DNA of 64,000 bases from a virus (taxonomy: Duplodnaviria; Heunggongvirae; Uroviricota; Caudoviricetes; Demerecviridae): the IMG/VR virus record IMGVR_UViG_2974640449_000001, positions 64,242 to 128,241 of that record; one strand, given 5' to 3'. A model generated the notes under the pieces. The model searched no databases. It saw only the letters and a list, made by a program, of their open reading frames with translations, and was not told the origin of the DNA. Below are positions 10,405 through 52,957 of the stretch, one piece after another; within the stretch, counting starts at the first letter, position 1; the number at the start of each line of letters is the position of its first letter. The position numbers were made by a program, and so were the translations under genes.

Positions 10405-10408
10405 TAAT

Positions 10409-10495: not shown

Positions 10496-10568
10496 AACAA
10501 TGCGGGAACCAGAGTTAATAATTGCAGTTGTTAAGCAGCGATAGCTAACTCTCCCGCGCCAAATAAAT

Positions 10569-10662
10569 GGAAGGGCAATCCGATGGTTGGCGACGGAACT
10601 GGTCTTGAAAACCAGCGAGTGCTAATAGCGCCTTGAGAGTTCGATCCTCTCTCCTTCCGCCA
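10569..10662 (+). tRNA. tRNA-Ser (TGA), type II
   Basis: GGAAGGG acceptor, loop CTTGAAA, long variable arm, T arm GAGAG-TTCGATC-CTCTC, CCA. Confidence 0.7.
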
Positions 10663-10669
10663 AATTAAT

Positions 10670-10756
10670 GCGTACTGAAGACTGAGCGGTCGGTCACTAG
10701 CCTTCCAAGCTAGCGCCCTTAATCGGGATAGGGTTCGACTCCCTCTGTACGCTCCA
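10670..10756 (+). tRNA. non-canonical type II tRNA-like gene, anticodon TCC (Gly reading) with a long variable arm
   Basis: Perfect anticodon arm CTAGC-CTTCCAA-GCTAG, T arm AGGG-TTCGACT-CCCT, acceptor GCGTACT/TGTACGC with a T-T mismatch, variable arm CCC-ttaatc-GGG, CCA. Confidence 0.5.
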
Positions 10757-10774
10757 AATTACTTAAAAATGGAA

Positions 10775-10803
10775 TTGCTTAAAACGTTAAATCAACGTAT
10801 AAT
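10775..10803 (+). promoter_or_regulatory. early promoter (TTGCTT-17-TATAAT) with conserved leader fused directly to tRNA-Thr
   Basis: ggaaTTGCTTaaaacgttaaatcaacgTATAATagttccataaagttgagaaac. Confidence 0.6.
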
Positions 10804-10827
10804 AGTTCCATAAAGTTGAGAAACAAA

Positions 10828-10903
10828 GCTTCTTTAGCTCAGTTGGGAGAGCAGCTCACTTGTAATGAGCAGGTCGTCCGTTCGAATCGGACAAGGAGCA
10901 CCA
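10828..10903 (+). tRNA. tRNA-Thr (TGT)
   Basis: GCTTCTT acceptor, loop CTTGTAA, T arm GTCCG-TTCGAAT-CGGAC, CCA. Confidence 0.8.
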
Positions 10904-10922
10904 CTTTACTACGGAGAAGATT

Positions 10923-11105
10923 ATGATTTATTTCAAAAATAAAGCAGGAAAACTTGGTGTAGTATCTTTCGATGATGCAGAATACGAACTCCAAGCCGTA
11001 CAAAACCCAAAAGAGTTACACAAAGATGTAACCGTAGCTGTAAGAGGACTTCCTAAAGACTGTCTTCCGGCAGAAAAGACTGCGTTCTTAACTGTAGTCA
11101 AATAA
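10923..11105 (+). CDS. hypothetical protein (60 aa)
   Basis: RBS GGAGAAGATTATG; lies between two tRNAs. Confidence 0.4.
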   Translation: MIYFKNKAGKLGVVSFDDAEYELQAVQNPKELHKDVTVAVRGLPKDCLPAEKTAFLTVVK

Positions 11106-11112
11106 GAATAAT

Positions 11113-11189
11113 AGGGGATTAGCTTAGCTGGCCGAAAGCAACGGACTTTGAATTCGTGACCGCAGGTTCGAATCCTGCATCCCCCGCCA
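11113..11189 (+). tRNA. tRNA-Gln (TTG)
   Basis: D arm GCTT-AGCTGGCCGA-AAGC, anticodon arm ACGGA-CTTTGAA-TTCGT, T arm GCAGG-TTCGAAT-CCTGC, CCA. Position 1-72 is an A-C mismatch. Confidence 0.7.
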
Positions 11190-11498
11190 TCTTTTGGGTA
11201 CTAAGCGTAACATATAACTATGTAGTGAAAGTAGCTTGTTACAATCCTAGGTGAATGCGCTAATACACTCTAGACCCAAATACAATACGGAGAGTCACTA
11301 CCGTACTAATCAAAAGTGTGAGCTTGAAAATTACTCTATTGTGAACGTGCTATGCTTCATCGGAAGCCTCTAACGACGGATGTACTTACCGCTGCATTTG
11401 CAAGTAACCAGTTTCATTGTATCATAAAGCCTCCAAGTAGTGGTTATGACCGAGAATAAGCCTAATAACGAGGTCGGGTATAGAGGATAAAATATTTC
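11190..11498 (+). ncRNA. candidate non-coding / structured RNA region in the tRNA block (about 300 nt, no ORF, no tRNA)
   Basis: ORF-free; sits between tRNA-Gln and tRNA-Val. Confidence 0.25.
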
Positions 11499-11574
11499 AC
11501 TCCCTTAGCTCAGTGTGTAGAGCACCTCCCTTACAAGGAGGGGGTCGTTGGTTCGAATCCAGCAGGGAGTACCA
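11499..11574 (+). tRNA. tRNA-Val (TAC)
   Basis: TAGCTCAGTGTGTAGAGC D arm, anticodon arm CCTCC-CTTACAA-GGAGG, TTCGAAT T loop, CCA. Confidence 0.75.
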
Positions 11575-11745
11575 TTTCATTTGCATTCTCATGTTATATA
11601 ACGTCTCAGGTCGTGCTGAGGTTATAGAAGCACCCTATACAGAGTAGTGACTGTGGGGAAGAGCTGTGTGCGGACAACACTAGGAAGCATGGGGTTTGAT
11701 AGAGAGTGTCATTGAAATGGTAACACAATAACAAAGGATGAAGAT

Positions 11746-12153
11746 ATGCAACTCGATGAAATGCAAGCTAAATTGTTAGAAGTACGTAAGGCTCGTAACG
11801 CCGTAGGTAAATCTGTTATGCAGTCTCTTATCGCAGACTTCGACAAGCAGGCTCGTACTGGTAAAGAAGTTGACGGTATGGCTCTTATCAAGAAATACTT
11901 AGCTAATGCTAATAGCAACTATGACCTAGAAGTACAGCGAGGCAACACTGCAAAAGCCGAAGAAACATATGGTAAAGAAATTGAGTTCCTAGAATCTCTA
12001 CTACCAAAGCAGCTAACCCAAGCAGAGCTTCGTAACATTATCGAAACTGGTAACTTTGCCAATATCGGTGAAGTAATGAAATTCTTACGCTTCAATTACC
12101 AAGGTCGTTATGACGGTAAAGCAGCGTCAGCTATTGCTAAGGAAGTTCTATGA
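11746..12153 (+). CDS. GatB/YqeY-domain protein
   Basis: 135 aa with the YqeY-like layout (LLEVRKARN...EFLESLLPKQLTQAELRNIIE...GEVMKFL...GRYDGKAASAIAKEVL), embedded among tRNA genes. Confidence 0.55.
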   Translation: MQLDEMQAKLLEVRKARNAVGKSVMQSLIADFDKQARTGKEVDGMALIKKYLANANSNYDLEVQRGNTAKAEETYGKEIEFLESLLPKQLTQAELRNIIETGNFANIGEVMKFLRFNYQGRYDGKAASAIAKEVL

Positions 12154-12380
12154 ACGAAGTAGAATTAAAAGTACGACAAGACCTTATCGACTCGGAGCTT
12201 AAATCTATCTCTGACAGCACAAAGGTACTGATGAGTCGTAAGAGAAAGCTAGAAAGTGAAAAAGCACGGTTGCAGGCAATCCAACAAACAGCGTGTGACC
12301 ACCCACGAGAAGCACGCGATTTCGTTATGGTTAATAATGAACCCGAATACTTCTGTACATTGTGTGGTAAAGATTTTTAA
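12150..12380 (+). CDS. hypothetical protein with C-terminal CxxC...CxxC zinc ribbon
   Basis: 76 aa; ACDHP...CTLCGK. Confidence 0.45.
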   Translation: MNEVELKVRQDLIDSELKSISDSTKVLMSRKRKLESEKARLQAIQQTACDHPREARDFVMVNNEPEYFCTLCGKDF

Positions 12381-12388
12381 TTAACAAT

Positions 12389-12464
12389 ATTGGGTAGCAT
12401 AATGGTATGCGGCAGGTCTCCAAAACCTTGCATGGAGAGGGTTCGATTCCCTCACCCTTTGCCA
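12389..12464 (+). tRNA. putative tRNA-Trp (CCA), atypical
   Basis: D arm GCAT-AATGGT-ATGC, anticodon loop CTCCAAA, T arm GAGGG-TTCGATT-CCCTC, CCA. Acceptor ATTGGGT/ACCCTTT has two T-T mismatches and the anticodon stem has a bulge. Confidence 0.45.
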
Positions 12465-12480
12465 AAAATAAAGAGGAAAT

Positions 12481-12768
12481 ATGGACGCAGCTAAAAGAAA
12501 ACGCGAAAGAGAAAAGCGTGATCTGGGCATGGCTCCATCTACTGCCAGAGATAGGCTAATGAAAAAGTTAGTATTCTCTCATATACAGTCCAGAGGTATA
12601 GTATGCCACCACTGTGGTAAAGAAATGACAGTAGACACTTTCTCCATAGAGCATATTAAGCCTTGGAGAGGTGAACCGAATGCAGCAGAACTGTACTTCG
12701 ACCTAGATAATGTAACATATAGTCATCGTTCTTGTAACTACAAATTTACCAGACAAAATGGCTACTAA
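12481..12768 (+). CDS. HNH endonuclease
   Basis: CHHCGK...EHIKPW...N...HRSCN: the HNH C..C / EH / N / H..C motif set. Confidence 0.7.
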   Translation: MDAAKRKREREKRDLGMAPSTARDRLMKKLVFSHIQSRGIVCHHCGKEMTVDTFSIEHIKPWRGEPNAAELYFDLDNVTYSHRSCNYKFTRQNGY

Positions 12769-12774
12769 AACAAT

Positions 12775-12850
12775 ACTTCCGTAGCTCAGTTGGTAGAGCG
12801 TTCGACCGATAATCGAAGGGTCACTGGTTCAAGTCCAGTCGGGAGTACCA
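12775..12850 (+). tRNA. tRNA-Ile (GAT)
   Basis: TAGCTCAGTTGGTAGAGC D arm, anticodon arm TTCGA-CCGATAA-TCGAA, T arm ACTGG-TTCAAGT-CCAGT, CCA. Confidence 0.75.
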
Positions 12851-12868
12851 ATTTAAATAAGGGCTAGT

Positions 12869-13039
12869 ATGAAACTATCAATGATTTCACCTCATACCGA
12901 GATTAGAGTACATCGCTACTCTAAGCAGCAAGGAGAGTTGCGCAATAAGCTCAAAAAGTGGAAGAAACAAGGAAAAGTAATACTAGTCAAAACGACAGCG
13001 ACAGAGTTCATCTACAAAAAATACTGTCGCTGGTTATAG
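12869..13039 (+). CDS. small basic protein (56 aa); not in ORF track
   Basis: RBS AAGGGCTAGTATG; MKLSMISPHTEIRVHRYSKQQGELRNKLKKWKKQGKV... Confidence 0.3.
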   Translation: MKLSMISPHTEIRVHRYSKQQGELRNKLKKWKKQGKVILVKTTATEFIYKKYCRWL

Positions 13040-13114
13040 TCCCTTTAGCTCAGTGGTTAGAGCGTCCGGCTCATAACCGGAGGGTCACTGGTTCAAGTCC
13101 AGTAAGGGGCACCA
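13039..13114 (+). tRNA. tRNA-Met (CAT), third CAT tRNA
   Basis: TAGCTCAGTGGTTAGAGC D arm, anticodon arm CCGGC-TCATAAC-region with CAT, T arm ACTGG-TTCAAGT-CCAGT, CCA. Confidence 0.7.
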
Positions 13115-13243
13115 TATTGCAATAGCACAACCCCGTGCTTGGGCGGTGTTCACTCAAGAATCGTAGTCAGTGAACTAAGTAATAAAAACTAGGGGATCGT
13201 AGCATCCGCCCACCAATTATTATAATTATCATGGAGATACTAT

Positions 13244-13420
13244 ATGAAAACAGCTAATCTACTAAAGTTCGCAGCAGAAAAACCATTCGTAGTTAACCGC
13301 CACAAGCGTTCTCAAGAAAAACTACGCTCTCAATGCCAACGTCTTGTTAAATCAGGTCGTCTAGTAGAAGTTGAAAAGACACATGACCAAGTCATGTATC
13401 GTACTCCAGTAACAGAATAA
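13244..13420 (+). CDS. small basic protein (58 aa); not in ORF track
   Basis: RBS ATGGAGATAC; MKTANLLKFAAEKPFVVNRHKRSQEKLRSQCQRLVKSGRLVEV... Confidence 0.3.
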   Translation: MKTANLLKFAAEKPFVVNRHKRSQEKLRSQCQRLVKSGRLVEVEKTHDQVMYRTPVTE

Positions 13421-13421
13421 A

Positions 13422-13497
13422 GCGGGAATAGCTCAGCAGGTAGAGCACTTGGTTGAAGACCTTGGTGTCGCTGGTTCAACTCCAGCTTCCCGCACCA
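13422..13497 (+). tRNA. tRNA-Phe (GAA), weak anticodon stem
   Basis: GCGGGAA/TTCCCGC acceptor, TAGCTCAGCAGGTAGAGC D arm, loop TTGAAGA, T arm GCTGG-TTCAACT-CCAGC, CCA. Confidence 0.65.
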
Positions 13498-13505
13498 CTA
13501 ACAAT

Positions 13506-13583
13506 ACACGACTAGCTCAATTGGATAGTAGCAGCACCCTACGAAGGTGAAGGTTCGGGGTTCGAGTCCCTGGTCGTGTGCCA
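13506..13583 (+). tRNA. tRNA-Arg (ACG)
   Basis: ACACGAC/GTCGTGT acceptor, TAGCTCAATTGGATAG D arm, loop CTACGAA, TTCGAGT T loop, CCA. Confidence 0.7.
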
Positions 13584-13603
13584 ATTTAAAGAGAGAAGAT
13601 ATT

Positions 13604-13888
13604 ATGGCAATCCCCTCAGCAAAAGAATTAACTCAACGTATTGCACTAGATAATGCAGGTAAAGCTCTAGAAGCTGAAAAGGCTCTAGAAGTGGCGTTTA
13701 AGCGAGTAGAATCTATTCCTAGAAATGGAGTCTTCGATATAAGCGTTGGATTAGGTAGTACACATAAAGCTGTTATGGAAGAGCTTTTGCGTAAAGCTGG
13801 ATACCACTTAATATCTATTCACTTCTCTACGTGGCGTAACGAACCTTCAGCACAGATTCGTTTACAAATACCACCACAAGCAGAATAA
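13604..13888 (+). CDS. hypothetical protein (94 aa)
   Basis: Track ORF 13547 overlaps tRNA-Arg. Start moved to ATG 13604 behind RBS AGAGAGAAGAT. Confidence 0.45.
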   Translation: MAIPSAKELTQRIALDNAGKALEAEKALEVAFKRVESIPRNGVFDISVGLGSTHKAVMEELLRKAGYHLISIHFSTWRNEPSAQIRLQIPPQAE

Positions 13889-13890
13889 TT

Positions 13891-13980
13891 GGAGAGATGC
13901 CCGAACTGGTTAAGGGAGCTCCCTGCTAAGGAGTCGGCTGCTAACACGGTCTGTGGGTTCAACTCCCACTCTCTCCGCCA
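13891..13980 (+). tRNA. tRNA-Ser (GCT), type II
   Basis: GGAGAGA/TCTCTCC acceptor, loop CTGCTAA, long variable arm, T arm GTGGG-TTCAACT-CCCAC, CCA. Confidence 0.8.
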
Positions 13981-14109
13981 ATTAATATCCTAGTAACCGC
14001 TAGGGAGTCCACGAGAACTCATAAGGATGCTCGAAGATGCTTTATTATTATAACGATTTTTCTCGAATAGAAACTGTAACTCCTGTTACGGTCACACTAG
14101 GAGAGAAAC

Positions 14110-14313
14110 ATGGATCGAAGACATAAACTAAGAGTAAACTGGCATCGACGTCTTAAAGACGATGAAATTGCAATTGAGAATGGTTTTACCACACGCTTGT
14201 TCAAGCAAACCGAAGTCTATATGTACGACTTATCTTGGTGGGATTACCCACGCAGAACACTTGAGCGTAGTTGGAAAAACCAATCTAAAAAACGTAAACA
14301 ATGGGAACGCTAG
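14110..14313 (+). CDS. hypothetical protein (67 aa, basic)
   Basis: RBS GGAGAGAAACATG. Confidence 0.35.
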   Translation: MDRRHKLRVNWHRRLKDDEIAIENGFTTRLFKQTEVYMYDLSWWDYPRRTLERSWKNQSKKRKQWER

Positions 14314-14341
14314 ACGTTCCCATTTATTTTGAGGAAAAATT

Positions 14342-14722
14342 ATGAGATGGTTTTTTAATAAAGAAAAAACAGAACAAAAAGAAGAGCCTAACGTACCCAT
14401 GCTTGAAAAATATGCTACATCTCTTCCAAGGAAAGAAGACTTATCAGCATACCAGGAGGAGCTCTATCAATACTTCAAAAAAGTAGTAGATACTACTCTG
14501 AGGGAGGCGATAAATAATCACATTAAACCTAAGGATACCTTTCCTTTAAGTATACCAAGGGATAGCTTAAACGTACCTACTGAGGTGTTTAGTTACGTTA
14601 TTCCTAGGCTTCTAAAAGAGAAGGGGTATTCAGTTACACGCTATAGCGAGACAATTACTTTTCCACATGGCGTGTGCCACGAGTACCTACTATTATTAAA
14701 TGAAACAACTTCTCAGGAGTAA
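14342..14722 (+). CDS. hypothetical protein
   Basis: 126-aa ORF, RBS GAGGAAAAATTATG. Confidence 0.45.
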   Translation: MRWFFNKEKTEQKEEPNVPMLEKYATSLPRKEDLSAYQEELYQYFKKVVDTTLREAINNHIKPKDTFPLSIPRDSLNVPTEVFSYVIPRLLKEKGYSVTRYSETITFPHGVCHEYLLLLNETTSQE

Positions 14723-14724
14723 AT

Positions 14725-15273
14725 ATGAAACATCAAATCTATCTAGCAGGTGACATGCTAAACCGTGGTGCTCAACTTCAACGAGCAGAAGAAAAACGTG
14801 ACTTACTTAATCTAGGTTATGACTTATACGTGCCTCAAGATAATAAAGAGATTAATGATAAAGAAAATCTCAACTCGAATGATGGTCTAGCAGAAAAAAT
14901 TGTTCGTGCAGATACTAATGGCATTATGCAGTCTGACATAGTGGTTATGGAAGCCCGTGAAGCAGCATTGGGTACTTGTATTGAACTTGGTCAGATTAAA
15001 GGTATGAAAGACGTCGCTAAAACAGTCTTGTCTATGCTAGAGTCTGGTTGCTCTCTTAAAGAAGTAATTCATAATATGGAGCAAATTCGTGATAAGCTTG
15101 TTCTAGTTCACAACTCAGATATTCGCCGAGCAGGTAATCCTACCGAAACAGGCGATCGTCGCTCTTATGCTCCTCACCAGTACATGTATGGCGTAGTGCT
15201 TGATGTTACTAACGGGCACGGCTACTATGATTGGGGTGAAATTACATACATTCTAGATAAGGACAACGCATAA
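14725..15273 (+). CDS. nucleoside 2-deoxyribosyltransferase-like protein (Ndt/DNPH1 family)
   Basis: N-terminal MKHQIYLAGDML motif typical of the family; 182 aa. Confidence 0.45.
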   Translation: MKHQIYLAGDMLNRGAQLQRAEEKRDLLNLGYDLYVPQDNKEINDKENLNSNDGLAEKIVRADTNGIMQSDIVVMEAREAALGTCIELGQIKGMKDVAKTVLSMLESGCSLKEVIHNMEQIRDKLVLVHNSDIRRAGNPTETGDRRSYAPHQYMYGVVLDVTNGHGYYDWGEITYILDKDNA

Positions 15274-15899
15274 TGTTAGAGAAGATTTGGTCAGCATTAG
15301 CAGTCCTATTAGTAATGGCTGCTTGTCTTATTTCGGGGGCGGATTTATTCGTATCTGCCTTATCTTTAGTGGGTATTCTATTTGTACTTGGAGTTTCCTT
15401 CAAGCACCCTGAATCCCAATTGCTAGGAGCAGTCTTCTGTGCATTCCTAGCATTTGCCTCCTTTGGGGCTGGCTTTTACGCTAATGCCTTAGTTAATGGA
15501 GCTTTTTTACTTCCTGCATCTATATTTGGTTACTTTTATTGGAAACGCCGAACGGGCGCAGGGAATCTTGAGCGGAGTCTCACTTCAGAACAGTTTGGAA
15601 AAGTGGCAGCCATTATTGCGGTTGCAACTATCATAACGTTCTACTTTACTATAGGAGCTGGCGGAGCACTTCCTTTTATGGATGCACTGACTGCGGTAAT
15701 GCCAGTGGCAGCCACCCTATTAATGATTGGAGCTTATCGTGACCAATGGCTATTATGGATACCTTTCAATGCAATCCAAGCCTTTATGTGGTTCTCGGCA
15801 GCCTCTTTACAACCCGCAGTATTAGCTGTGTTTGTATTAAAAATGGTCTTTCTAGTCAACTCAGTGATTGGATACTATCAATGGAGAAAGGGGGCGTAA
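15273..15899 (+). CDS. multi-pass membrane protein, PnuC-like nicotinamide riboside/NMN transporter candidate
   Basis: 208 aa, about 6-7 hydrophobic helices with Trp-rich segments (FGYFYWKRR, WLLWIPFNAIQAFMWF). Confidence 0.45.
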   Translation: MLEKIWSALAVLLVMAACLISGADLFVSALSLVGILFVLGVSFKHPESQLLGAVFCAFLAFASFGAGFYANALVNGAFLLPASIFGYFYWKRRTGAGNLERSLTSEQFGKVAAIIAVATIITFYFTIGAGGALPFMDALTAVMPVAATLLMIGAYRDQWLLWIPFNAIQAFMWFSAASLQPAVLAVFVLKMVFLVNSVIGYYQWRKGA

Positions 15900-15921
15900 G
15901 CCTCCTTCTTAAAAGTTTTAT

Positions 15922-15950
15922 TTGCTAAACTCTCTTATTTAACGTATAAT
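15922..15950 (+). promoter_or_regulatory. early promoter TTGCTA-17-TATAAT
   Basis: tTTGCTAaactctcttatttaacgTATAATtattacataaatt. Confidence 0.55.
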
Positions 15951-15981
15951 TATTACATAAATTAATGAGAGAGGTTATCAA

Positions 15982-16242
15982 ATGATTGACACTTGGGAAT
16001 GGGCAGAAGTTGCCGCACATATTTTAGGTCTTCCAGAAGAAACTGATGAAGAAGTAGTTGAACGAGAACTCCTCCAAGAGTTCGGTCTAGACTTGGAATG
16101 TTTTGGCAACATTGCCGATAAGCTCCTTGGCATGACCGTGCCTGTTGAAACAGCTCTAGGTGGCTCTATTGTACAAGCATTTGTTAAATTCGAAGACACC
16201 CATGTAAGAGCACTAGCTAAGAAGGATTTCAAACGTGATTAA
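15982..16242 (+). CDS. hypothetical acidic protein (86 aa)
   Basis: ORF behind promoter 15922. Confidence 0.45.
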   Translation: MIDTWEWAEVAAHILGLPEETDEEVVERELLQEFGLDLECFGNIADKLLGMTVPVETALGGSIVQAFVKFEDTHVRALAKKDFKRD

Positions 16243-16382
16243 ACTATCTTTACAACAAGCAGAAACTATGCTAGCTCTTCTTAATGACATTGAAGAAGAG
16301 AAAGGCAATCTACTTCCCCAAGAAGAAGAATTACAAGCCTATCTTGACGCAGCAATTGATGCTGAAAAAGATAAAAACTGAA

Positions 16383-16411
16383 TTGCTAAACTGCTTTAAA
16401 GTCTGTATAAT
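16383..16411 (+). promoter_or_regulatory. early promoter TTGCTA-17-TATAAT with leader, upstream of tRNA-Cys/His
   Basis: aaTTGCTAaactgctttaaagtctgTATAATagttccataaagttga. Confidence 0.6.
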
Positions 16412-16437
16412 AGTTCCATAAAGTTGATTAAACAAAT

Positions 16438-16514
16438 GGGTTGTATGCTGAAGTGGACGAAGCGCGGGATTGCAAACCCCGTCTTACTCGGTTCGAGTCC
16501 GAGACTTCCCTCCA
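16438..16514 (+). tRNA. putative tRNA-Cys (GCA), atypical
   Basis: Anticodon arm CGGGA-TTGCAAA-CCCCG, T arm CTCGG-TTCGAGT-CCGAG, CCA. Acceptor GGGTTGT/ACTTCCC has two T-T mismatches. Confidence 0.45.
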
Positions 16515-16520
16515 AACAAT

Positions 16521-16598
16521 GGTGTTAGTAGCTCAAATGGATAGAGCCCCTGCTTGTGACGCAGGAGGTTGCGGGATCGTACCCCGTCTAACACCCCA
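16521..16598 (+). tRNA. tRNA-His (GTG) with an encoded G-1
   Basis: G-1 paired to C73, TAGCTCAAATGGATAGAGC D arm, anticodon arm CCTGC-TTGTGAC-GCAGG, CCA. Confidence 0.8.
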
Positions 16599-16606
16599 AA
16601 TTTAAG

Positions 16607-16810
16607 GTGATAGTAGTGATTAAGAAAATCATTCGTCGTAATAAACAAAAATTTACTGCAATCTTCAAAGAAGGTCGCAGAATGTTCCCGAAAGGTGAGT
16701 TCAACAATGTAACTTACCTAGGACAGTCCAACGGTATGAATCTATTTCGTGCTGATGAAGGCTTTGCTTACAAAGGCATGACTTTCTGTAACGAAGCGAC
16801 TTGGTCTTAA
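16607..16810 (+). CDS. hypothetical protein (67 aa), GTG start
   Basis: ORF between tRNA-His and tRNA-Arg; RBS AAGG. Confidence 0.35.
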   Translation: MIVVIKKIIRRNKQKFTAIFKEGRRMFPKGEFNNVTYLGQSNGMNLFRADEGFAYKGMTFCNEATWS

Positions 16811-16820
16811 ACAAATTAAT

Positions 16821-16897
16821 GCGCCCTTAGCTCAGCTGGATAGAGCACGTCCCTTCTAAGGATGTGGTCGTAGGTTCGAATCCTACAGGGCGTGCCA
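16821..16897 (+). tRNA. tRNA-Arg (TCT)
   Basis: GCGCCCT/AGGGCGT acceptor, TAGCTCAGCTGGATAGAGC D arm, loop CTTCTAA, T arm GTAGG-TTCGAAT-CCTAC, CCA. Confidence 0.8.
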
Positions 16898-16916
16898 TTT
16901 TCTATTGGAGAAGATA

Positions 16917-17081
16917 ATGTTCACACTAGGCGTAATATGGCTTATTTTTCAAGGTATAACTTGTACTGCTCTAGCTGATTGTAAAAGTGAAGACATGTGT
17001 AATAAAATTATGTGGATGCCAACGATAGTACGTTGGATTATCTTTACTGTCCCGTCCTTAGTCGTATGGGCTAATAAATAA
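16917..17081 (+). CDS. small membrane protein (54 aa); not in ORF track
   Basis: RBS ATTGGAGAAGATAATG; MFTLGVIWLIFQGITCTALADC... Confidence 0.3.
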   Translation: MFTLGVIWLIFQGITCTALADCKSEDMCNKIMWMPTIVRWIIFTVPSLVVWANK

Positions 17082-17092
17082 CGGAGAAGATT

Positions 17093-17422
17093 ATGTTTAC
17101 TAGAGAACAAAAATACGTTGTAATATCTCTTAGAGATATTCGTGAAGGACTAGATGAAGGTCAAAAAATGGCTTTAGCTGGTCTACTATCAAAGATGGAA
17201 AACCATCGTAAAGCTCGTGGCAGAGAGCCAATTGAAGCAGTAGTTATTGACAAAAACACTCTAGGTGAACTACCGTATGAGGACGGTTTCAAAATTGTTG
17301 AATCAGCAGTACATGCAAAACATCAACGAAACTGCGAACATACATATAAACGTGACATTGCAGTTATGGGTGGTCTAGACGTACTAACCTGTACCAAATG
17401 TGGTCACGTAGAACTTGAATAA
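17093..17422 (+). CDS. hypothetical protein with C-terminal zinc ribbon (C..H..C..C)
   Basis: 109 aa; RBS GGAGAAGATTATG. Confidence 0.45.
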   Translation: MFTREQKYVVISLRDIREGLDEGQKMALAGLLSKMENHRKARGREPIEAVVIDKNTLGELPYEDGFKIVESAVHAKHQRNCEHTYKRDIAVMGGLDVLTCTKCGHVELE

Positions 17423-17427
17423 ACAAC

Positions 17428-17514
17428 GCTGGCGTGGTGGAATTGGTAATACACGTGGGGCTTAAAACCCCATGCCCTAGAGGATTGAGAGTTCGAGTCT
17501 CTCCGCCAGTACCA
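17428..17514 (+). tRNA. tRNA-Leu (TAA), type II
   Basis: GCTGGCG/CGCCAGT acceptor, anticodon arm TGGGG-CTTAAAA-CCCCA, long variable arm, T arm GAGAG-TTCGAGT-CTCTC, CCA. Confidence 0.75.
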
Positions 17515-36955: not shown

Positions 36956-36984
36956 TTGCTAAAGAACGTTAAAAACCGTATAAT
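36956..36984 (+). promoter_or_regulatory. early promoter TTGCTA-17-TATAAT with conserved leader
   Basis: aaTTGCTAaagaacgttaaaaaccgTATAATagttacataaagttgagaaacggagat. Confidence 0.65.
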
Positions 36985-37017: not shown

Positions 37018-37281
37018 ATGGCAGATTTTTGGGACAAACACCTTACAAAAGAGCAGCAGTACGAAATCGTAGATTCAGTTGCAGGTACTTGTGATACAGG
37101 TTGTAATGCTGAATACTGGCAAAAAGAGTTTGGCTTCAGCAATGAAGTTCGTGACGAGTTAAACTGGGATTTTCCTAGTCTAGCTGCTAAATTCGAGCTA
37201 TTCCGCTGTGAAGATTGCATGTGGTGGGGTGACATGGGTGAAGTTGGTGACTGTAATGAATGTGGTGGAGAGTTAGTATGA
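37018..37281 (+). CDS. Cys-rich zinc-ribbon protein (87 aa)
   Basis: CDTGC...CEDC...CNEC. Confidence 0.45.
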   Translation: MADFWDKHLTKEQQYEIVDSVAGTCDTGCNAEYWQKEFGFSNEVRDELNWDFPSLAAKFELFRCEDCMWWGDMGEVGDCNECGGELV

Positions 37282-38204
37282 AATTCAACGTACAAGATTT
37301 GATTGACCGTGGCTTGGTTAAAGCTAAAGAATATGATAATGGACTAAAAGTATTGAAGTACGACCGCTCGGTATTCTTCAAAAACTTGTGGCATCTAGAC
37401 GAACGCTTGCTTGAGTGTCGTGGTCGCGTGGTTGATGCTGACTGGAATGTGATTATTAATCCATTCAAAAAAGTATTCAACTATGGTGAAAACGGTACTG
37501 GTAACGAGCTACGAAAAGACTGTCTGTACCGTGAAGTACACAAGCTCAATGGTTTCCTGGGTTGTGTTACTCGTTCCTCAGAGTATGGTATGTTGTACTC
37601 TACTACTGGTACACTAGACTCAGAGTATGCGCAGATGGTTAAAGATATGTTTCTAGAGCATACTCGTCACATTGATGAAATTCATCCAGATTTCACACTG
37701 ATGTTCGAAGTATGTCACCAAGACGACCCACATATTGTACCAGAGCAGGTAGGTATCTACTTGATCGGTTGCCGCCATACTGGTGAGGGCGAAGAATGCG
37801 AAGAAGAGCAGTTTACAGAGAAAGAGCTAGATAAACTTGCACGTCATTTCGGTTGGCGTCGTCCAGAGCATCGTCTAGATACTCTGGAAAATATCCTAGC
37901 ACGAGCTAAGGCATCTAAAACAGAAGGTGTTATGGTGTGTTCAGCACTTAACGACGAGCACTTGTTTAAGTACAAGACTCCACACTACCTGTCCAAGAAA
38001 CTACTTATGCGTCTAGGTAAAGCCCGTGTAGAACAGCTGTTTGACAATCCAGAACAGTTTAAAAAGAGCTTAAAGGATGAGGAGTTCTTCGGTTTTGTAG
38101 ATTACGTGGCTCGGTACATCGGTCGAGATATGTGGAAAACACTAAAAGACCAAGAGCGTCGTGAACTGATTGAGTGCTGGTTCGACAAAAACAACGCTTT
38201 TTAA
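37278..38204 (+). CDS. RNA ligase 1 (T4 Rnl1-like tRNA ligase)
   Basis: LLECRGRVVD ~ T4 Rnl1 ALECRGIMF; VHKLNGFLG in the position of the Rnl1 motif-I lysine block (TKEDGSL). Confidence 0.65.
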   Translation: MKFNVQDLIDRGLVKAKEYDNGLKVLKYDRSVFFKNLWHLDERLLECRGRVVDADWNVIINPFKKVFNYGENGTGNELRKDCLYREVHKLNGFLGCVTRSSEYGMLYSTTGTLDSEYAQMVKDMFLEHTRHIDEIHPDFTLMFEVCHQDDPHIVPEQVGIYLIGCRHTGEGEECEEEQFTEKELDKLARHFGWRRPEHRLDTLENILARAKASKTEGVMVCSALNDEHLFKYKTPHYLSKKLLMRLGKARVEQLFDNPEQFKKSLKDEEFFGFVDYVARYIGRDMWKTLKDQERRELIECWFDKNNAF

Positions 38205-38205
38205 A

Positions 38206-38234
38206 TTGCCAAAGCAAGGAAGCTTTGATATAAT
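38206..38234 (+). promoter_or_regulatory. early promoter TTGCCA-17-TATAAT
   Basis: aaTTGCCAaagcaaggaagctttgaTATAATatctgtagaaattgaggagatt. Confidence 0.5.
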
Positions 38235-38259
38235 ATCTGTAGAAATTGAGGAGATTGTT

Positions 38260-38523
38260 ATGATTATTTCTAAGTATGATGTAGTCGTGAGTTTTGGTAC
38301 AAGTAGTTACTGCGATGTAACTATGTGCCAAAGTGATTTTTGTCAGATTAAGGACGAACTTGTAGAGAGACTAGGAGAGTTTGGTGGAGAGATCTGTGTA
38401 ACACTTACCACTATCTCTTTCACTATCTCAGGTGTTGAAGACGCTGCATACGCCGAAGAGCTAGAAACTAAGCTAGCTGATATTGGTGAATACTTACTTG
38501 AATGTTTATGGGAGCAAGAATAA
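38260..38523 (+). CDS. hypothetical protein (87 aa)
   Basis: RBS GAGGAGATTGTTATG. Confidence 0.4.
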   Translation: MIISKYDVVVSFGTSSYCDVTMCQSDFCQIKDELVERLGEFGGEICVTLTTISFTISGVEDAAYAEELETKLADIGEYLLECLWEQE

Positions 38524-38927
38524 TGAAAAAACTATATTTGATTCGTGGTGTGTCTGGTTCTGGCAAAACTACTCTAGCTAAGTCAATGGAACAAGGTATG
38601 CGATACTCTCGTGCTGTTGCTGCTGACGATTACTTCATGTTTGAAGGTAAGTATCTATTTGATGTTAACAAGCTACATGCAGCGCATCAATGGTGTCAAG
38701 ACCAAGTTGACGGTCTTATGATTTGTGAGATGCACCACATTATTGTGCATAACACCTTCACTACAGAAAAAGAAATGAAGCCGTACTTTGACTTAGCGGA
38801 GAAATACGGCTATGAAGTAACCACCCTAGTGGTTGAGAACCGTCACGGCAATGATTCAGTACACGATGTGCCAGAAGAAACATTAACACGCCAACGTCAA
38901 CGCCTACGTGCCAACATCCGTCTATAA
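38523..38927 (+). CDS. P-loop polynucleotide 5'-kinase-like protein (Pnk kinase-domain homolog)
   Basis: MKKLYLIRGVSGSGKTTLAK Walker A motif; 134 aa; sits between the RNA ligase and a phosphoesterase. Confidence 0.55.
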   Translation: MKKLYLIRGVSGSGKTTLAKSMEQGMRYSRAVAADDYFMFEGKYLFDVNKLHAAHQWCQDQVDGLMICEMHHIIVHNTFTTEKEMKPYFDLAEKYGYEVTTLVVENRHGNDSVHDVPEETLTRQRQRLRANIRL

Positions 38928-38936
38928 GGAGAAGAT

Positions 38937-39500
38937 ATGCGTCTACAGTTCGGAGCAAAACTAAACCCAGATGTGAATTACTTTATCACGTCTGACCTAC
39001 ACTTCTTTCATACTAACATCATGAAGTTCTGTCCAAAAACACGTCCTTGGGCTGAACGCGATGAAATGAATGAAGCACTTATTGCACATTGGAACTCTAT
39101 TGTGGGTGAAGATGATGTAGTCTTCCACATTGGAGACTTTTCATTCGCAGGGATGGATAAAACTCAGGGTATCCTAGACCGATTGAATGGTACAATTATC
39201 TTTGTAATGGGCAACCATGATAAGACCATTCGAAATCAGTTGAAGTCTCACAACAAGTTCGAATATCTCGAAGTTACTTATAATAAAATCAAAATTTGTA
39301 TGTTCCACTATGCGATGCGTGTTTGGAATCAACAACATCGTGGAGCAGTTCACTTTTATGGGCACTCCCATGGGTCACTACCAGGTACTGGACGTTCTAT
39401 GGATGTAGGCTTCGATGCTCACGGTAAAATCCTGCCTCTAGATTGGGCAGTAAAACAAATGCTTAAAATTGAAAACACTGAAACAGAGGATCACCACTAA
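38937..39500 (+). CDS. calcineurin-like metallophosphoesterase (putative 2',3'-phosphatase partner of the kinase)
   Basis: DLHFFH, GDF, GNHD, GHSH motifs; 187 aa. Confidence 0.6.
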   Translation: MRLQFGAKLNPDVNYFITSDLHFFHTNIMKFCPKTRPWAERDEMNEALIAHWNSIVGEDDVVFHIGDFSFAGMDKTQGILDRLNGTIIFVMGNHDKTIRNQLKSHNKFEYLEVTYNKIKICMFHYAMRVWNQQHRGAVHFYGHSHGSLPGTGRSMDVGFDAHGKILPLDWAVKQMLKIENTETEDHH

Positions 39501-40500: not shown

Positions 40501-40506
40501 ATCTTA

Positions 40507-40537
40507 GGTTGCTTCGGCAACCTTTTTTACGTATAAT
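40507..40537 (+). promoter_or_regulatory. terminator hairpin GGTTGCTTCGGCAACC-T6 whose loop supplies the -35 (TTGCTT) of an early promoter (TATAAT at 40532)
   Basis: aGGTTGCTTCGGCAACCttttttacgTATAATatatacataaattaaagagaagga. Confidence 0.6.
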
Positions 40538-46336: not shown

Positions 46337-47323
46337 ATGGAAGCAATTAAATACCCAAGCACCGGTCAATTCCGTAACGCAGCTAAATTCCTACAACATA
46401 ACACTCCGGCAGGTTCTCTAGTGCCTATGGTTGGTACTGTTAAAATCCACGGTACTAACGGTAGTATGGTTATGCTAGAAGATGGTACTATCCACTTCCA
46501 GTCTAAGAGCCGTGTACTAGATACCCACAATGATAACTCTGGCTTCTGTAACTACATGCTAGAACAGCCTGTAGAAGAACTATTTGAGAAGTTCATTGCT
46601 CAGTACAAAAAATATTACGGCAAGCACCCAGCATTCCCTATCGAAATCGCAGGTGAATGGGCAGGTAAAGGTATCCAAAAAGGTGTGGCTGTCAGTGAAG
46701 TAGATAAGTTCTTCACTATCTTCGGATTCCGTGTTGGTTGCGAAGTAGATAATGGCGGTAAGCTAATTGGTTGGCTAACTAACCACAAGTTCAACGATGT
46801 GAGCCTACACGAAAGTCGTATCTACAACGCTTACGACTTCGGTTGCTACCGAATCACTATCAACACTGCAATGCCTCAATTGGCAACTGAGCGTCTTCAA
46901 GAGCTTACCCTAGAAGTAGAGAAGGAGTGTCCGGTAGGTAAATACTTCGGTATTGAAGGTGTTGGTGAAGGTATCGTATGGACTCCGGTTGACGATGCAC
47001 TAGCAGACAACCCAGGTGGCTGGTTCAAGGTTAAAGGTCAGAAGCACAGCGTTAGCAAAGTCAGCAAACTAGCGTCTGTAGACCCTGAAAAACTACGCAA
47101 CATCCAAGAGTTCGTGGATTACGCTGTAACTGAAAACCGTCTAGAACAAGGTCTACAGGAAGTGGGTCTGGACATGAAACTAACTGGAAAGTTCATCGGT
47201 TGGGTTAACAAAGATATTTACAAAGAAGAAAAGGATGTTCTGGAAGCTAATGGCTTGACTATGAAGGAAGTTGGCAACCTACTAAGTCAAAAAGCTCGTG
47301 AATTTTACTTCTCTAAGATGTAA
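46337..47323 (+). CDS. RNA ligase 2 family (T4 Rnl2-like) nucleotidyltransferase
   Basis: Motif I VKIHGTNGSM matches Rnl2 EKIHGTNFSL; 328 aa. Confidence 0.65.
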   Translation: MEAIKYPSTGQFRNAAKFLQHNTPAGSLVPMVGTVKIHGTNGSMVMLEDGTIHFQSKSRVLDTHNDNSGFCNYMLEQPVEELFEKFIAQYKKYYGKHPAFPIEIAGEWAGKGIQKGVAVSEVDKFFTIFGFRVGCEVDNGGKLIGWLTNHKFNDVSLHESRIYNAYDFGCYRITINTAMPQLATERLQELTLEVEKECPVGKYFGIEGVGEGIVWTPVDDALADNPGGWFKVKGQKHSVSKVSKLASVDPEKLRNIQEFVDYAVTENRLEQGLQEVGLDMKLTGKFIGWVNKDIYKEEKDVLEANGLTMKEVGNLLSQKAREFYFSKM

Positions 47324-52269: not shown

Positions 52270-52500
52270 ATGTGGGTATCCGTTTACGAATTTGTAGCAA
52301 TGGTTGAAGCAACTAACTCGCTGTTTTGTTTAAGACAGCGAACTACACGATTAGAGCCCGCAGCATTAGCTAAACAATGCCAGCGAGACGTTTATGGAGT
52401 GTACCATAACAAAGAACATAATTGCACAAGTCTAGAAGAACGTACAGTGATGGCTGTAATGGATAAGGTACTAGAAGATGCGAAAAGTAATATTTCTTGA
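52270..52500 (+). CDS. hypothetical protein (76 aa)
   Basis: Start moved to ATG 52270 just after the upstream stop. Confidence 0.3.
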   Translation: MWVSVYEFVAMVEATNSLFCLRQRTTRLEPAALAKQCQRDVYGVYHNKEHNCTSLEERTVMAVMDKVLEDAKSNIS

Positions 52501-52957
52501 TTTCGACGGTGTTATTAACGCCCAGACAGGTGAGTGGAAGACTACAGAAGTTCCTGACTATTTAGGCTACTGCCCTCACAACCCAAAACTTATACAAACA
52601 CTAAATATCTTGATAGAACGTTCACAAGCTGATTTAGTTATCTCAAGTACTTGGCGTCTTGGTACAGACGTTACTACATTACAGCAAGTTTGTACTGCGC
52701 TTGGTATTAAAGGCAAAGTCATTGGTAAGACTGACTCACTAGGCAAGTGGACAGTACGTGGCAATGAGATTGACAAATACATCGACGAGCACAAAGAGCA
52801 GTTAGGCTACGATTACTCATGGAATTACAAGTCATACGTTATTTTGGACGACGACTCGGACATGCTTCTGCCGCAAGCGGCTAACTTTGTCCGAATTGAT
52901 AATGAAGTGGGTATTACACTAAAAGACGTTGAAAAGGCTATGCAGGTGTTATCATGA
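52478..52957 (+). CDS. HAD-superfamily phosphatase (T4 Pnk phosphatase-domain-like DxDG motif)
   Basis: VIFLDFDGVIN motif I; VILDDD motif near the C-terminus; 159 aa. Confidence 0.5.
   Translation: MRKVIFLDFDGVINAQTGEWKTTEVPDYLGYCPHNPKLIQTLNILIERSQADLVISSTWRLGTDVTTLQQVCTALGIKGKVIGKTDSLGKWTVRGNEIDKYIDEHKEQLGYDYSWNYKSYVILDDDSDMLLPQAANFVRIDNEVGITLKDVEKAMQVLS

Follow-up and report, generated by a model that had tools for sequence, protein, structure and literature searches.

A predicted heal-and-seal RNA repair module encoded by three separate genes in the T5-like Vibrio phage Ceto

Introduction

The occurrence of genes for an RNA ligase, a kinase and a phosphoesterase side by side in a phage genome raises the question of whether their products act together to repair broken RNA and, if so, what kind of damage they answer. 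In phage T4, Pnkp and Rnl1 (gp63) form a tRNA repair pathway that reverses the damage done by the anticodon nuclease PrrC. The genes considered here lie in a stretch of 64,000 nucleotides (the window) that represents the final 64 kb of the genome of Vibrio phage Ceto (T5-like; Demerecviridae, Cetovirus). Positions 36900-39600 are 100% identical to NC_042094.1, and window positions are given by the position in that record minus 64241. We propose, with a probability of roughly 0.7, that gp169, gp171 and gp172 of this phage constitute a three-gene 'heal-and-seal' RNA repair module that is the functional equivalent of T4 Pnkp and Rnl1. The most likely role of such a module would be to re-join RNAs, probably tRNAs, that have been cut by host defences.

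The initial annotation had described a ligase, a Walker-A kinase and a metallophosphoesterase encoded by separate adjacent genes, and the open reading frames, their coordinates and sizes and the quoted motifs were all reproduced. For each protein there are hundreds of homologs with 35-60% identity and the quoted motifs sit on invariant alignment columns, so these can be regarded as real genes.

The ligase

The ligase, gp169 (308 aa; 37278..38204, + strand), is a member of the Rnl1 clade of ATP-dependent RNA ligases and contains the motifs LLECRGRVVD and HKLNGF. The alignment check for a nucleotidyltransferase lysine, on which the Rnl1-like assignment had been made to depend, identified the motif I lysine as K89 (KLNG), which is invariant in the family. 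Other invariant residues are R48, K65, F67, G92, E144, E216-G217 and K231/K233, aligned respectively with R54, K75, F77, G102, E159, E227-G228 and K240/K242 of T4 Rnl1. T4 Rnl1 is also the first structural match, with the ligase of fungal Trl1 second. An Rnl1-type enzyme with its nucleotidyltransferase lysine is thus supported, although in profile searches the Ceto ligase falls below every Pfam and NCBIfam threshold. The Ceto protein is 66 aa shorter than T4 Rnl1 and has an almost invariant threonine (Thr110) in its family at the position of T4 Lys119. Its C-terminal helical region covers about 75 aa, as opposed to about 120 aa in T4 Rnl1, and there is no detectable sequence similarity between the two regions. 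Specificity for tRNA cannot therefore be inferred from the ligase.

The kinase

The product of the kinase gene, gp171 (134 aa; 38523..38927, + strand), resembles a stand-alone P-loop 5'-OH polynucleotide kinase. It carries the sequence GVSGSGKTT and matches PF13671 (AAA_33, E 2e-11) as well as the phage profiles phrog_2071 (1e-49) and phrog_505 ('polynucleotide kinase', 7e-11). The family profile aligns over its full length with T4 Pnk (1ly1, 2e-6) and Clostridium thermocellum Pnk (4gp7, 3.6e-6), in line with the Pnk-like assignment made earlier. Polynucleotide kinases (T4 Pnk, C. thermocellum Pnk and Pnkp1) are the only full-length matches with E <1e-3 among solved structures; an end-to-end alignment was also obtained with seryl-tRNA(Sec) kinase, with an E of 0.005. 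Residues G14, K15 and D35 are invariant, the last corresponding to the catalytic aspartate D35 of T4 Pnk. The arginine that follows the catalytic aspartate (R38 in T4 Pnk, R41 in C. thermocellum Pnk) is replaced by Phe38 in gp171, and T4 R126 is not conserved. Close relatives, which score E 1e-41 to 1e-44 against the family profile, occur in fused form, in P0451 with an Rnl1 ligase domain, in P0403, P0430, P0482 and P0500 with HD domains (in both orders) and in P0419 with a 2',3'-cyclic phosphodiesterase domain of the CNPase/2H type. Within the Pnk-like kinases, gp171 belongs to a clade of N4BP2 type.

The phosphoesterase

The third protein, gp172 (187 aa; 38937..39500, + strand), is a calcineurin-like dinuclear metallophosphoesterase with the motifs DLHFFH, GNHD and GHSH. 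It matches PF12850 (7e-8), PF00149 (7e-6) and phrog_547 (E 1.8e-54), and every ligand of the dinuclear metal centre is invariant (D20, H22, D67, N93, H94, H124, H143 and H145). An AlphaFold2 model (pLDDT 94.2) has as its top Foldseek match the small Aquifex aeolicus protein aq_1665 (PDB 1xm7; E 3.9e-8, TM 0.67), to which the family profile also aligns at 1.7e-21, making aq_1665 the closest solved relative by both sequence and fold. Since this bacterial protein, itself stand-alone, has no substrate assigned to it, it carries no functional information on gp172.

The phosphatase had previously been called bacterial-Pnkp-type, and this is correct only at the level of the superfamily. The protein is a member of the aq_1665 family and not of the lambda-phosphatase type found in bacterial Pnkp, and it gave no match to phrog_8238, a Pnkp-like phage profile (cut-off E 0.001), or to TIGR04075, the model for bacterial Pnkp (cut-off E 0.01). 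Both are matched by an adjacent NinI-like phosphatase (36215-36955), the gene for which accompanies the ligase only in T5-like Vibrio phages. Hydrolysis of nucleoside 2',3'-cyclic phosphates is a known activity of dinuclear metallophosphoesterases, lambda phosphatase among them (PMC2190708). We consider gp172 a candidate for the healing of 2',3'-cyclic-phosphate or 3'-phosphate ends, a role that is the weakest link in the proposed module.

Linkage of the three genes

Homologs of the ligase were found in 709, and of the kinase in 621, of 50,697 phage records, with closely matching counts by genus (ligase/kinase: Escherichia 199/198, Pseudomonas 175/173, Klebsiella 36/36, Acinetobacter 24/24, Campylobacter 23/23). 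Of 80 sampled IMG/VR phage loci containing a ligase homolog, 62 have the kinase no more than 3 kb away, 47 have the phosphoesterase at such a distance and 39 have both. The order phosphoesterase-ligase-kinase on one strand is the most frequent (29 loci), and in about 13 of the 80 the kinase and ligase form a single ORF. The module is carried mainly by unrelated myoviruses (Vequintavirinae, Pakpunavirus, Phapecoctavirus and Klebsiella phages). Co-occurrence of the three genes is thus seen in many phage lineages that are not related to one another. The unbundled architecture noted for Ceto is real but not special, being the commonest state of the module in several hundred sequenced phages.

Clean-up and ligation of tRNA ends has already been predicted for homologous neighbourhoods of the rV5/Mydo type (Iyer et al., 2022, Viruses 14:1977; PMC9503650, section 3.7.3) and for that of the Pakpunavirus Adele (Viruses 2025; PMC12846349), the latter paper leaving the 3'-phosphatase partner unidentified. 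Loci of the rV5-like, Phapecoctavirus-like and Pakpunavirus types encode homologs of all three Ceto proteins at about 35-50% identity. Relative to these the Ceto order is rearranged to ligase-(87-aa insert)-kinase-phosphoesterase, and the sirtuin, cREC domain protein and MazG-like protein that are additionally found in enterobacterial versions are all missing from the Ceto window. The Ceto trio is a further member of a widespread phage gene set with a predicted function. We found no measured activity in the literature for any member of the three phage families.

Other RNA repair genes, tRNAs and anti-defence neighbours

Support was also obtained for the further RNA-related genes listed by the initial annotation. 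A second, Rnl2-like ligase, gp185 (328 aa; 46337..47323, + strand), lies 8 kb downstream and matches PF09414 above the gathering score (E 7.6e-8) and phrog_548 (E 8e-70), although its score of 27 bits for the Rnl2 model TIGR02307 is well short of the cut-off, 197. The stand-alone phosphatase gp199 (159 aa; 52478..52957, + strand) matches PF18143 (HAD_SAK_2, E 1.7e-22), a family entitled 'HAD domain in Swiss Army Knife RNA repair proteins', and may be an alternative 3'-phosphatase; in four of the sampled loci (L005-L007 and L055) a homolog is found some 2 kb away from the ligase. An array of 25 tRNA genes predicted by ARAGORN (9348..17514, + strand), of which 19 were confirmed at the Rfam gathering score, provides candidate substrates of repair or substitutes for damaged tRNAs. 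The combination of a second ligase, an RNA repair HAD phosphatase and 25 tRNA genes suggests that the phage both replaces and repairs tRNAs. Directly downstream of the repair genes is the NAD+-rebuilding operon NARP1-AP, which has been experimentally validated as anti-defence in Gary, a sister phage of Ceto.

A model for repair and its relation to known systems

In the proposed pathway a metal-independent ribonuclease of the host, or of a competitor, would cleave an RNA, most plausibly in the anticodon loop of a tRNA. The dinuclear metallophosphoesterase gp172 would open and strip the cyclic or 3' phosphate, and gp171 would move the gamma phosphate of an NTP onto the 5'-OH with Asp35 as the general base. 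After auto-adenylylation on Lys89, gp169 would convert the 5'-phosphate to AppRNA and seal the break. PrrC, RloC, PARIS and retrons may be among the systems countered in this way.

These predicted steps of 5' phosphorylation, 3' end healing and ATP-dependent sealing are those of T4 Pnkp and Rnl1. The phosphatase of T4, however, is a HAD/DxDxT acyl-phosphatase fused to the kinase, whereas that of Ceto would be a separate metallophosphoesterase. Bacterial Pnkp-Hen1 of C. thermocellum draws on the same superfamilies as Ceto (P-loop Pnk kinase, calcineurin-like metallophosphoesterase and covalent-lysine ligase) but Pnkp is a single polypeptide. Fungal and plant Trl1 likewise unites ligase, kinase and cyclic phosphodiesterase in one polypeptide, a combination echoed by the CNPase/2H fusion among the relatives of the phage kinase; the 2H phosphodiesterase of Trl1 leaves a 2'-phosphate, which the Trl1 ligase requires.

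Alternative explanations

It may be that the ligase and kinase alone form the repair pair and that gp172 has a separate job, such as the breakdown of an immune signal (a nucleotide or cyclic nucleotide) or of some other phosphoester. Its position would then reflect a clustering of accessory early genes, and 3' ends would be healed by gp199 or a host enzyme. The phosphoesterase family is indeed the broadest of the three, with 1400 phage records that include Gram-positive groups lacking this ligase altogether (Staphylococcus, Listeria, Enterococcus and Bacillus phages), and 33 of the 80 ligase loci have no member of it within 3 kb. The unknown function of aq_1665, the dedicated HAD phosphatase elsewhere in the genome and the cREC cyclic-phosphate-processing domain that adjoins the ligase in enterobacterial phage lineages, and could heal 3' ends there, are also in agreement with this idea. 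Against it, the phosphoesterase is directly upstream of the ligase, with the kinase downstream on the same strand, in the 29 loci mentioned above, which span several lineages, and in Gram-negative phages its counts by genus track those of the ligase (phosphoesterase/ligase: Escherichia 211/199, Pseudomonas 181/175, Klebsiella 39/36, Acinetobacter 26/24). Since no cREC homolog was found in the 64-kb Ceto window, the cluster offers no candidate for 3' healing other than the phosphoesterase. A separate job for gp172 is on balance unlikely, if still worth bearing in mind.

We are more doubtful that the module serves the phage's own RNAs, through maturation, splicing or circularisation of transcripts of the tRNA array. 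Large arrays are usual in phages that carry the module (that of the rV5-like phage HdK5 is <4 kb away from it) and the Rnl1-clade ligases of fungi and plants, including the second-best structural match Trl1, are tRNA-splicing enzymes. The Ceto tRNA genes are, however, ordinary and uninterrupted according to both ARAGORN and Rfam, and the module adjoins a validated anti-defence operon, accessory counter-defence genes tending to cluster. T4 Pnkp/Rnl1, to our knowledge the sole phage precedent to have been studied, is likewise a counter-defence system. That same neighbouring operon might suggest that the kinase, for instance as a nicotinamide riboside kinase, and the phosphoesterase work with NARP1-AP in nucleotide or NAD+ metabolism, leaving only the ligase to act on RNA. 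In a single-sequence PDB search the kinase matches human nicotinamide riboside kinase 1 best (E 0.0045; 1.2e-6 with the family profile), the examined flanks of the ligase loci contain Prs/Adps homologs in about 29 and NadV/Namat homologs in about 28-32 of 80, and the rV5 kinase homolog has been labelled a 'nucleotide kinase' (Iyer et al., PMC9503650). The nicotinamide riboside kinase match spans only the first ~50 residues (the P-loop and the DD[YF]F strand), whereas both Pnk matches are full length. The fusion partners of the kinase (Rnl1 ligase, HD and CNPase) are domains that occur in RNA end-healing enzymes, and none is an NAD enzyme, kinase-ligase single ORFs exist, and NARP1-AP needs only Adps, the Macro-domain phosphatase and Namat; a metabolic role thus appears very improbable. 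Least credible is an action on DNA ends, such as the processing or sealing of the single-strand interruptions typical of T5-like genomes. Ceto is T5-like, and in vitro DNA ends can serve as substrates for Pnk-type kinases and for some RNA ligases, but the module occurs mainly in unrelated myoviruses and the counts by genus (Escherichia about 199, Salmonella 14), set against the large number of T5-like coliphage records, suggest its absence from most of these coliphages.

Transcription units and small neighbouring ORFs

The genes from ligase to phosphoesterase are closely packed on the + strand, and to that extent the earlier description of one operon stands, but they probably fall into two promoter-driven units. 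A sigma-70-like promoter candidate (36956..36984, + strand; TTGCTA-17-TATAAT, 10/12, a consensus match only) precedes gp168 and the ligase, and a strong candidate (38206..38234, + strand; TTGCCA-17-TATAAT with a TG extension, 11/12) occupies the gap between the ligase and gp170. The only canonical terminators in the region are at 35268-35285 and 40506-40523. Together these positions suggest adjacent units of gp168-ligase and gp170-kinase-phosphoesterase-gp173-gp174, between which read-through is possible. The second would be closed by the terminator-like hairpin at 40506..40523 (+ strand), a 7-bp GC-rich stem followed by a T-run.

The acidic 87-aa protein gp170 (38260..38523, + strand; phrog_30323) is encoded between the ligase and the kinase. 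The overlap of its stop with the kinase start, as previously described, is seen as TAATG, the final A of the TAA at 38521-38523 doubling as the first base of the kinase ATG. No tblastn match to gp170 was found in any of the 80 related loci; because it is missing even in the close relatives L002 and L003, it is probably a lineage-specific insert rather than a component of the module. Homologs of gp168 (87 aa; 37018..37281, + strand; an annotated CDS matching phrog_2855, E 1e-14) are confined to these same two relatives. This protein has a zinc-ribbon-like CxxC...CxxC motif at its C-terminus and is probably translationally coupled to the ligase, its stop overlapping the ligase start by 4 nt (GTATGAAA).

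A split set of putative RNA repair genes in Vibrio phage Ceto

By nucleotide comparison, positions 36900-39600 of the window are 100% identical to the genome of Vibrio phage Ceto (NC_042094.1; Demerecviridae, Ermolyevavirinae, Cetovirus), a phage of Vibrio harveyi with a 128 kb genome, of which the window makes up the final 64 kb; about 50 related Vibrio phages carry the cluster region at 84-89% nucleotide identity. The region contains genes for a ligase (gp169, 37278-38204, 308 amino acids), a kinase (gp171, 38523-38927, 134 amino acids) and a phosphoesterase (gp172, 38937-39500, 187 amino acids), which are named in RefSeq 'putative RNA ligase/tail attachment protein', 'ATPase' and 'phosphoesterase' respectively. 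The initial annotation had proposed that these genes form a split module for the repair of cleaved tRNA. The open reading frames, lengths and motifs of all three were found where that annotation had placed them, and its general reading stands. The ligase is of the Rnl1 type, the kinase is Pnk-like and the phosphoesterase is of the calcineurin type, and they make up a conserved and usually unfused set, from which we infer a function in RNA repair.

The same annotation described the cluster as one operon. The close packing of the genes on the plus strand is consistent with this, although two adjacent transcription units are likelier. A near-consensus sigma-70-like site (36956-36984) lies just 5' of gp168, and a second (38206-38234), matching the consensus at 11 of 12 positions and carrying a TG extension, lies immediately past the ligase stop codon; the only canonical terminators in the cluster region are at 35268-35285 and 40506-40523. 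This arrangement suggests that gp168 is probably transcribed with the ligase, and gp170 with the kinase, the phosphoesterase, gp173 and gp174. The last two genes, which lie between 39500 and 40500 (+) and seem to belong to the same transcript as the kinase and phosphoesterase, as far as the terminator at 40506, encode small envelope-type proteins; gp173 has a signal peptide and predicted membrane segments, and gp174 is annotated as PagP-like, a name that has no Pfam support.

Two small proteins of 87 amino acids accompany the enzymes. The first, gp168 (37018-37281, +), is zinc-ribbon-like with a C-terminal CxxC...CxxC motif, and its end shares 4 nt with the start of the ligase gene, an overlap that the initial annotation does not mention. 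The second, gp170 (38260-38523), ends in a TAA at 38521-38523 that overlaps the kinase ATG starting at 38523 (TAATG), as had been described. A set of 80 IMG/VR loci encoding a homologue of the ligase was searched with profiles of the ligase, kinase and phosphoesterase families. Among these loci gp168 is confined to Ceto-like phages, and gp170 had no match by tblastn at any of them, even in the two close relatives of Ceto (L002 and L003). Both proteins are therefore lineage-specific, and gp170, which the initial annotation had described between ligase and kinase, is better regarded as an insert than as a component. The possibility that gp170 is a degenerate cREC domain was rejected, as the proteins that intervene between ligase and kinase elsewhere have no match in the window.

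The ligase

Assignment of gp169 to a ligase clade depends on sensitive comparisons. Searches of PDB sequences by phmmer and with the family profile matched no ligase, and the protein has no match in Pfam or NCBIfam, PF09511 included, although 19 of 28 aligned homologues do reach PF09511 (best E 4.4e-18). Kinship with T4 Rnl1 is visible solely through a PHROG profile, hhalign and comparison of structures. In PHROG the protein matches the T4 gp63-like ligase family with an E-value of 2.4e-54. By hhalign the family profile aligns with T4 Rnl1 with a probability of 97% and an E-value of 9e-11; the T4 sequence used agrees at 100% identity with the annotated product of rnlA. More than 240 homologues were found, each of about 300 amino acids. 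Motif I (K89-L-N-G92) is invariant in the 28 aligned family members and pairs with K99-E-D-G102 of T4, so that the nucleotidyltransferase lysine of the proposed Rnl1-like ligase is in place as K89.

The other residues that are invariant in this alignment are R48, K65, F67, E144, E216, G217, K231 and K233, together with N91 within motif I. In the profile comparison E144, E216-G217 and K231/K233 align with motifs III, IV and V of T4 (E159, E227-G228 and K240/K242), and R48, K65 and F67 align with the Rnl1-specific upstream residues R54, K75 and F77. Mutagenesis by the Shuman laboratory reportedly showed each of these T4 residues, from R54 to K240/K242, to be essential. Lys119 of T4 Rnl1 is also reported to be essential; its equivalent is missing from gp169, in which a nearly invariant Thr110 (in the block S-T-T-G-T-L-D-S) takes its place in an alignment that is plausible for this segment, not certain. 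An AlphaFold2 model of gp169 (pLDDT 90.9) has a fold nearer to Rnl1 than to Rnl2, Rnl3, Rnl4 or Rnl5 ligases. Taken together, the PHROG match, the aligned invariant residues, the profile comparison and the model therefore place gp169 in the Rnl1 clade, of which it is a short representative, as a predicted ATP-dependent RNA ligase. In T4 Rnl1 specificity for tRNA is conferred by a C-terminal helical domain. The corresponding region of gp169 (residues ~234-308) has six predicted helices and is about 45 amino acids shorter than that of T4. The hhalign match goes no further than T4 residue 266, and on sequence the region cannot be matched to the T4 specificity domain.

The kinase

The kinase gp171 matches AAA_33 (2e-11) and the PHROG families 'ATPase' (1e-49) and 'polynucleotide kinase' (7e-11). 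Its Walker A motif is G9-V-S-G-S-G-K15-T-T, of which G14 and K15 are invariant in the family, and an equally invariant D35 aligns with the general base of T4 Pnk (D35) and with D38 of the Clostridium thermocellum enzyme. In both of these kinases an arginine three residues past the catalytic aspartate (T4 R38, C. thermocellum R41) binds the acceptor phosphate. This arginine is missing from gp171, which has Phe38 at that position, and no conserved arginine replaces it in the family, so acceptor binding must differ from that of the T4 and C. thermocellum enzymes. A nearly invariant R107 (in the block E-N-R-H-G) aligns with the T4 lid residue R122, and T4 R126 falls opposite a variable position, in a loop whose alignment is uncertain.

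Human nicotinamide riboside kinase is matched somewhat more strongly by the family profile than the polynucleotide kinases are, yet this match spans the first 50 residues only, whereas T4 Pnk, C. thermocellum Pnk and Pnkp1 give full-length matches. An exhaustive profile search returned 13,745 relatives, most of 130-140 amino acids, and the best 150 of these include proteins in which the kinase is fused to the Rnl1 ligase domain (RNA_lig_T4_1), to an HD domain on either side or to a CNPase domain. That the family phosphorylates the ends of polynucleotides and not small molecules is argued most strongly by these fusions. The same best 150 also hold giant eukaryotic N4BP2-like proteins with CUE, three AAA_33, DUF1771 and Smr domains. 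Two eukaryote-like proteins of this type, P0362 (2322 amino acids) and P0368 (2373 amino acids), belong to the topmost matches of the profile (E ~1e-53), and the kinase domain of N4BP2 and the small kinases of phages are therefore unusually close relatives. N4BP2-type kinases occur in eukaryotes too, and their substrate would be defined if the module is shown to work.

The phosphoesterase

In gp172 the dinuclear metallophosphoesterase motifs (DxH, GD, GNH[DE], H and GHxH) are complete, and the metal ligands D20, H22, D67, N93, H94, H124, H143 and H145 do not vary across 30 sequences. The initial annotation had called this a bacterial-Pnkp-type phosphatase, a label that did not hold at the level of the family. 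No match was obtained to phrog_8238 (cut-off E 0.001) or to TIGR04075 bacter_Pnkp (cut-off E 0.01), and a Pnkp phosphatase was missing from the top 50 Foldseek matches, in which lambda phosphatase ranked fifth (E 8e-4). By profiles and Foldseek, gp172 resembles the lambda-phosphatase-like module of Pnkp at superfamily level only. Its sole close relative of solved structure is Aquifex aq_1665 (1xm7), to which no function has been assigned. The phosphoesterase step is the least secure part of the proposed repair function; if the module is shown to work, the aq_1665-type metallophosphoesterases would represent a new family of RNA 3'-end-healing enzymes.

Both profiles are matched by another protein of the region, a NinI-like phosphatase encoded at 36215-36955 (1.8e-10 for phrog_8238 and 1.6e-7 for TIGR04075). 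This protein was considered as the true Pnkp-type healing enzyme and rejected as a part of the module on two grounds: its best matches are protein phosphatases of the PrpA/PrpB type (E 2e-35), and among the 80 loci T5-like Vibrio phages are the only ones in which it is found with the ligase. The 'phage phosphatase' of a recent preprint on aRES and NARP1 was likewise considered as a counterpart of gp172 and dismissed, being a Macro-domain protein (bioRxiv 10.64898/2026.01.28.702374).

Linkage and distribution

At 62 of the 80 loci the kinase is found no more than 3 kb from the ligase; the same holds for the phosphoesterase at 47 loci and for both at 39. The commonest order, on one strand, is phosphoesterase-ligase-kinase (29 loci); the Ceto order of ligase-kinase-phosphoesterase recurs at three only (L002, L003 and L063, the last with kinase and ligase fused). 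At about 13 loci (L035, L037, L038, L040-L042, L044-L048, L050 and L063), and in the kinase-profile match P0451, kinase and Rnl1-type ligase form a single open reading frame of about 430 amino acids with the kinase N-terminal, so that counterparts of two Ceto genes out of the three are naturally fused. GenBank phage records contain the ligase 709 times and the kinase 621 times, with near-identical counts by genus. The co-location, the fusions and the matching genus counts indicate that ligase and kinase are very tightly linked. The link to the phosphoesterase is strong (47 of the 80 loci) but not exclusive, as this protein occurs in 1400 phage records, including groups of Gram-positive phages that have no Ceto-type ligase.

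Variation around this core takes several forms. A cREC protein (PF20274), a sirtuin and one more conserved protein extend the module in Vequintavirus, Phapecoctavirus-like and Klebsiella phages. The position between ligase and kinase is occupied in other lineages by the cREC protein (PF20274, 2e-17) or, as in Pakpunavirus, by an unrelated helical protein of 138 amino acids; none of these four proteins was detectable in the Ceto window. Homing-endonuclease-like open reading frames, judged by eye, are inserted between phosphoesterase and ligase in some lineages (L013 7484-7996, L026 7369-8013 and L064 6942-7511) and account for variable spacing within the module. In Vibrio phage phi 3, a T5-like phage of Vibrio cholerae (NC_028895.1 ~20942-21513; L022 8001-8480), the first 162 residues of the ligase were matched and no more, the kinase was not found, and the phosphoesterase follows directly after the ligase stretch, partly under an 'RNA ligase' annotation. 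This looks like a module that has decayed or been rearranged.

The neighbouring NAD+ operon

Directly downstream of the terminator at 40506-40523 begins a trio of genes on the plus strand (40568-43582) with Pfam/NCBIfam matches to Prs-like, Macro-domain and NAPRTase/Nampt-like proteins; RefSeq names them ribose-phosphate pyrophosphokinase, hypothetical protein and nicotinamide phosphoribosyltransferase. Ceto is closely related to Vibrio phage Gary, with 87% nucleotide identity across 36900-39600, and by this kinship and by gene order the trio corresponds to Adps, Adpp and Namat of the NAD+ reconstitution operon NARP1-AP. [quoted passage not shown] Homologues of the Adps- and Namat-type genes lie near the ligase at about 29-32 of the 80 loci and the Macro gene at 12.

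The simplest reading is that the repair module and NARP1-AP together form an island of counter-defence genes. A closer relationship can be envisaged, in which the two are functionally coupled through removal of a 2'-phosphate. Fungal Trl1 seals a junction that carries a 2'-phosphate. Here gp172, as a new class of 3'-end-healing enzyme, would open the cyclic phosphate to a 2'-phosphate and the Rnl1/Trl1-like ligase would seal the resulting junction in the manner of Trl1; the 2'-phosphate would then be stripped with NAD+ by host KptA/Tpt1 or, in rV5-like phages, by the linked sirtuin. Adps, Namat and the Poa1p-like Macro phosphatase Adpp would convert the ADP-ribose-1''-phosphate so formed back to NAD+. 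The closest characterised homologue of Adpp is Poa1p, which has a role in yeast tRNA splicing (bioRxiv 10.64898/2026.01.28.702374). Plain clustering of anti-defence genes accounts equally well for the adjacency of the two sets, and we consider functional coupling very improbable.

Relation to previous work

Defences that cut tRNA are now seen as common and include PrrC, RloC, PARIS, some retrons, Cas13 and type III CRISPR effectors. To our knowledge the RNA repair pathway of T4 is the only one from a phage to have been studied biochemically, and a search of the literature turned up no member of the split module that had been tested biochemically or genetically. Clean-up and ligation of cleaved RNA ends have been predicted for homologous neighbourhoods by Iyer et al. 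(PMC9503650), whose survey of jumbo phages noted that calcineurin-like and HD domains now and then provide the phosphatase. For the Pakpunavirus Adele, tRNA repair by an adjacent polynucleotide kinase and ligase was predicted in 2025, the kinase being without a phosphatase domain (PMC12846349). Several GenBank records already label homologues 'polynucleotide kinase' or 'RNA ligase A'. The Ceto genes therefore join a kind of module already predicted by comparative genomics, and the present result is mostly confirmatory. As several hundred sequenced phages carry it, the split module may be the commonest phage RNA repair system; its carriers include therapeutic candidates (Pakpunavirus, Vequintavirinae and Phapecoctavirus), and, were it shown to work, it would aid in predicting which phages escape tRNA-targeting immunity.

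Other features of the window

Upstream of the cluster, 33904-35253 (+) encodes an SPFH/Band 7 protein of 449 amino acids, the C-terminal half of which is long, coiled-coil-like and rich in Lys and Glu. The Rnl2-like ligase (46337-47323), the HAD phosphatase and the 25 tRNA genes that had also been reported are all real (Pfam, ARAGORN and Rfam). Two paralogous DUF7390 proteins, at 45752-46129 and 47556-47951 (+), lie on either side of the Rnl2-like ligase gene (Pfam E ~1e-24 to 1e-25). An Rfam scan of the 64-kb window returned nothing besides tRNAs, which form an array at 9348-17514 (+). Six of the 25 ARAGORN calls fall short of the gathering score in Rfam, namely those at 9348 (Met), 9514 (Glu), 10569 (Ser), 10670 (Gly), 12389 (Trp) and 16438 (Cys), and the 'tRNA-Gly(tcc)' at 10670-10756 is, at 87 nt, unusually long for a glycine tRNA.
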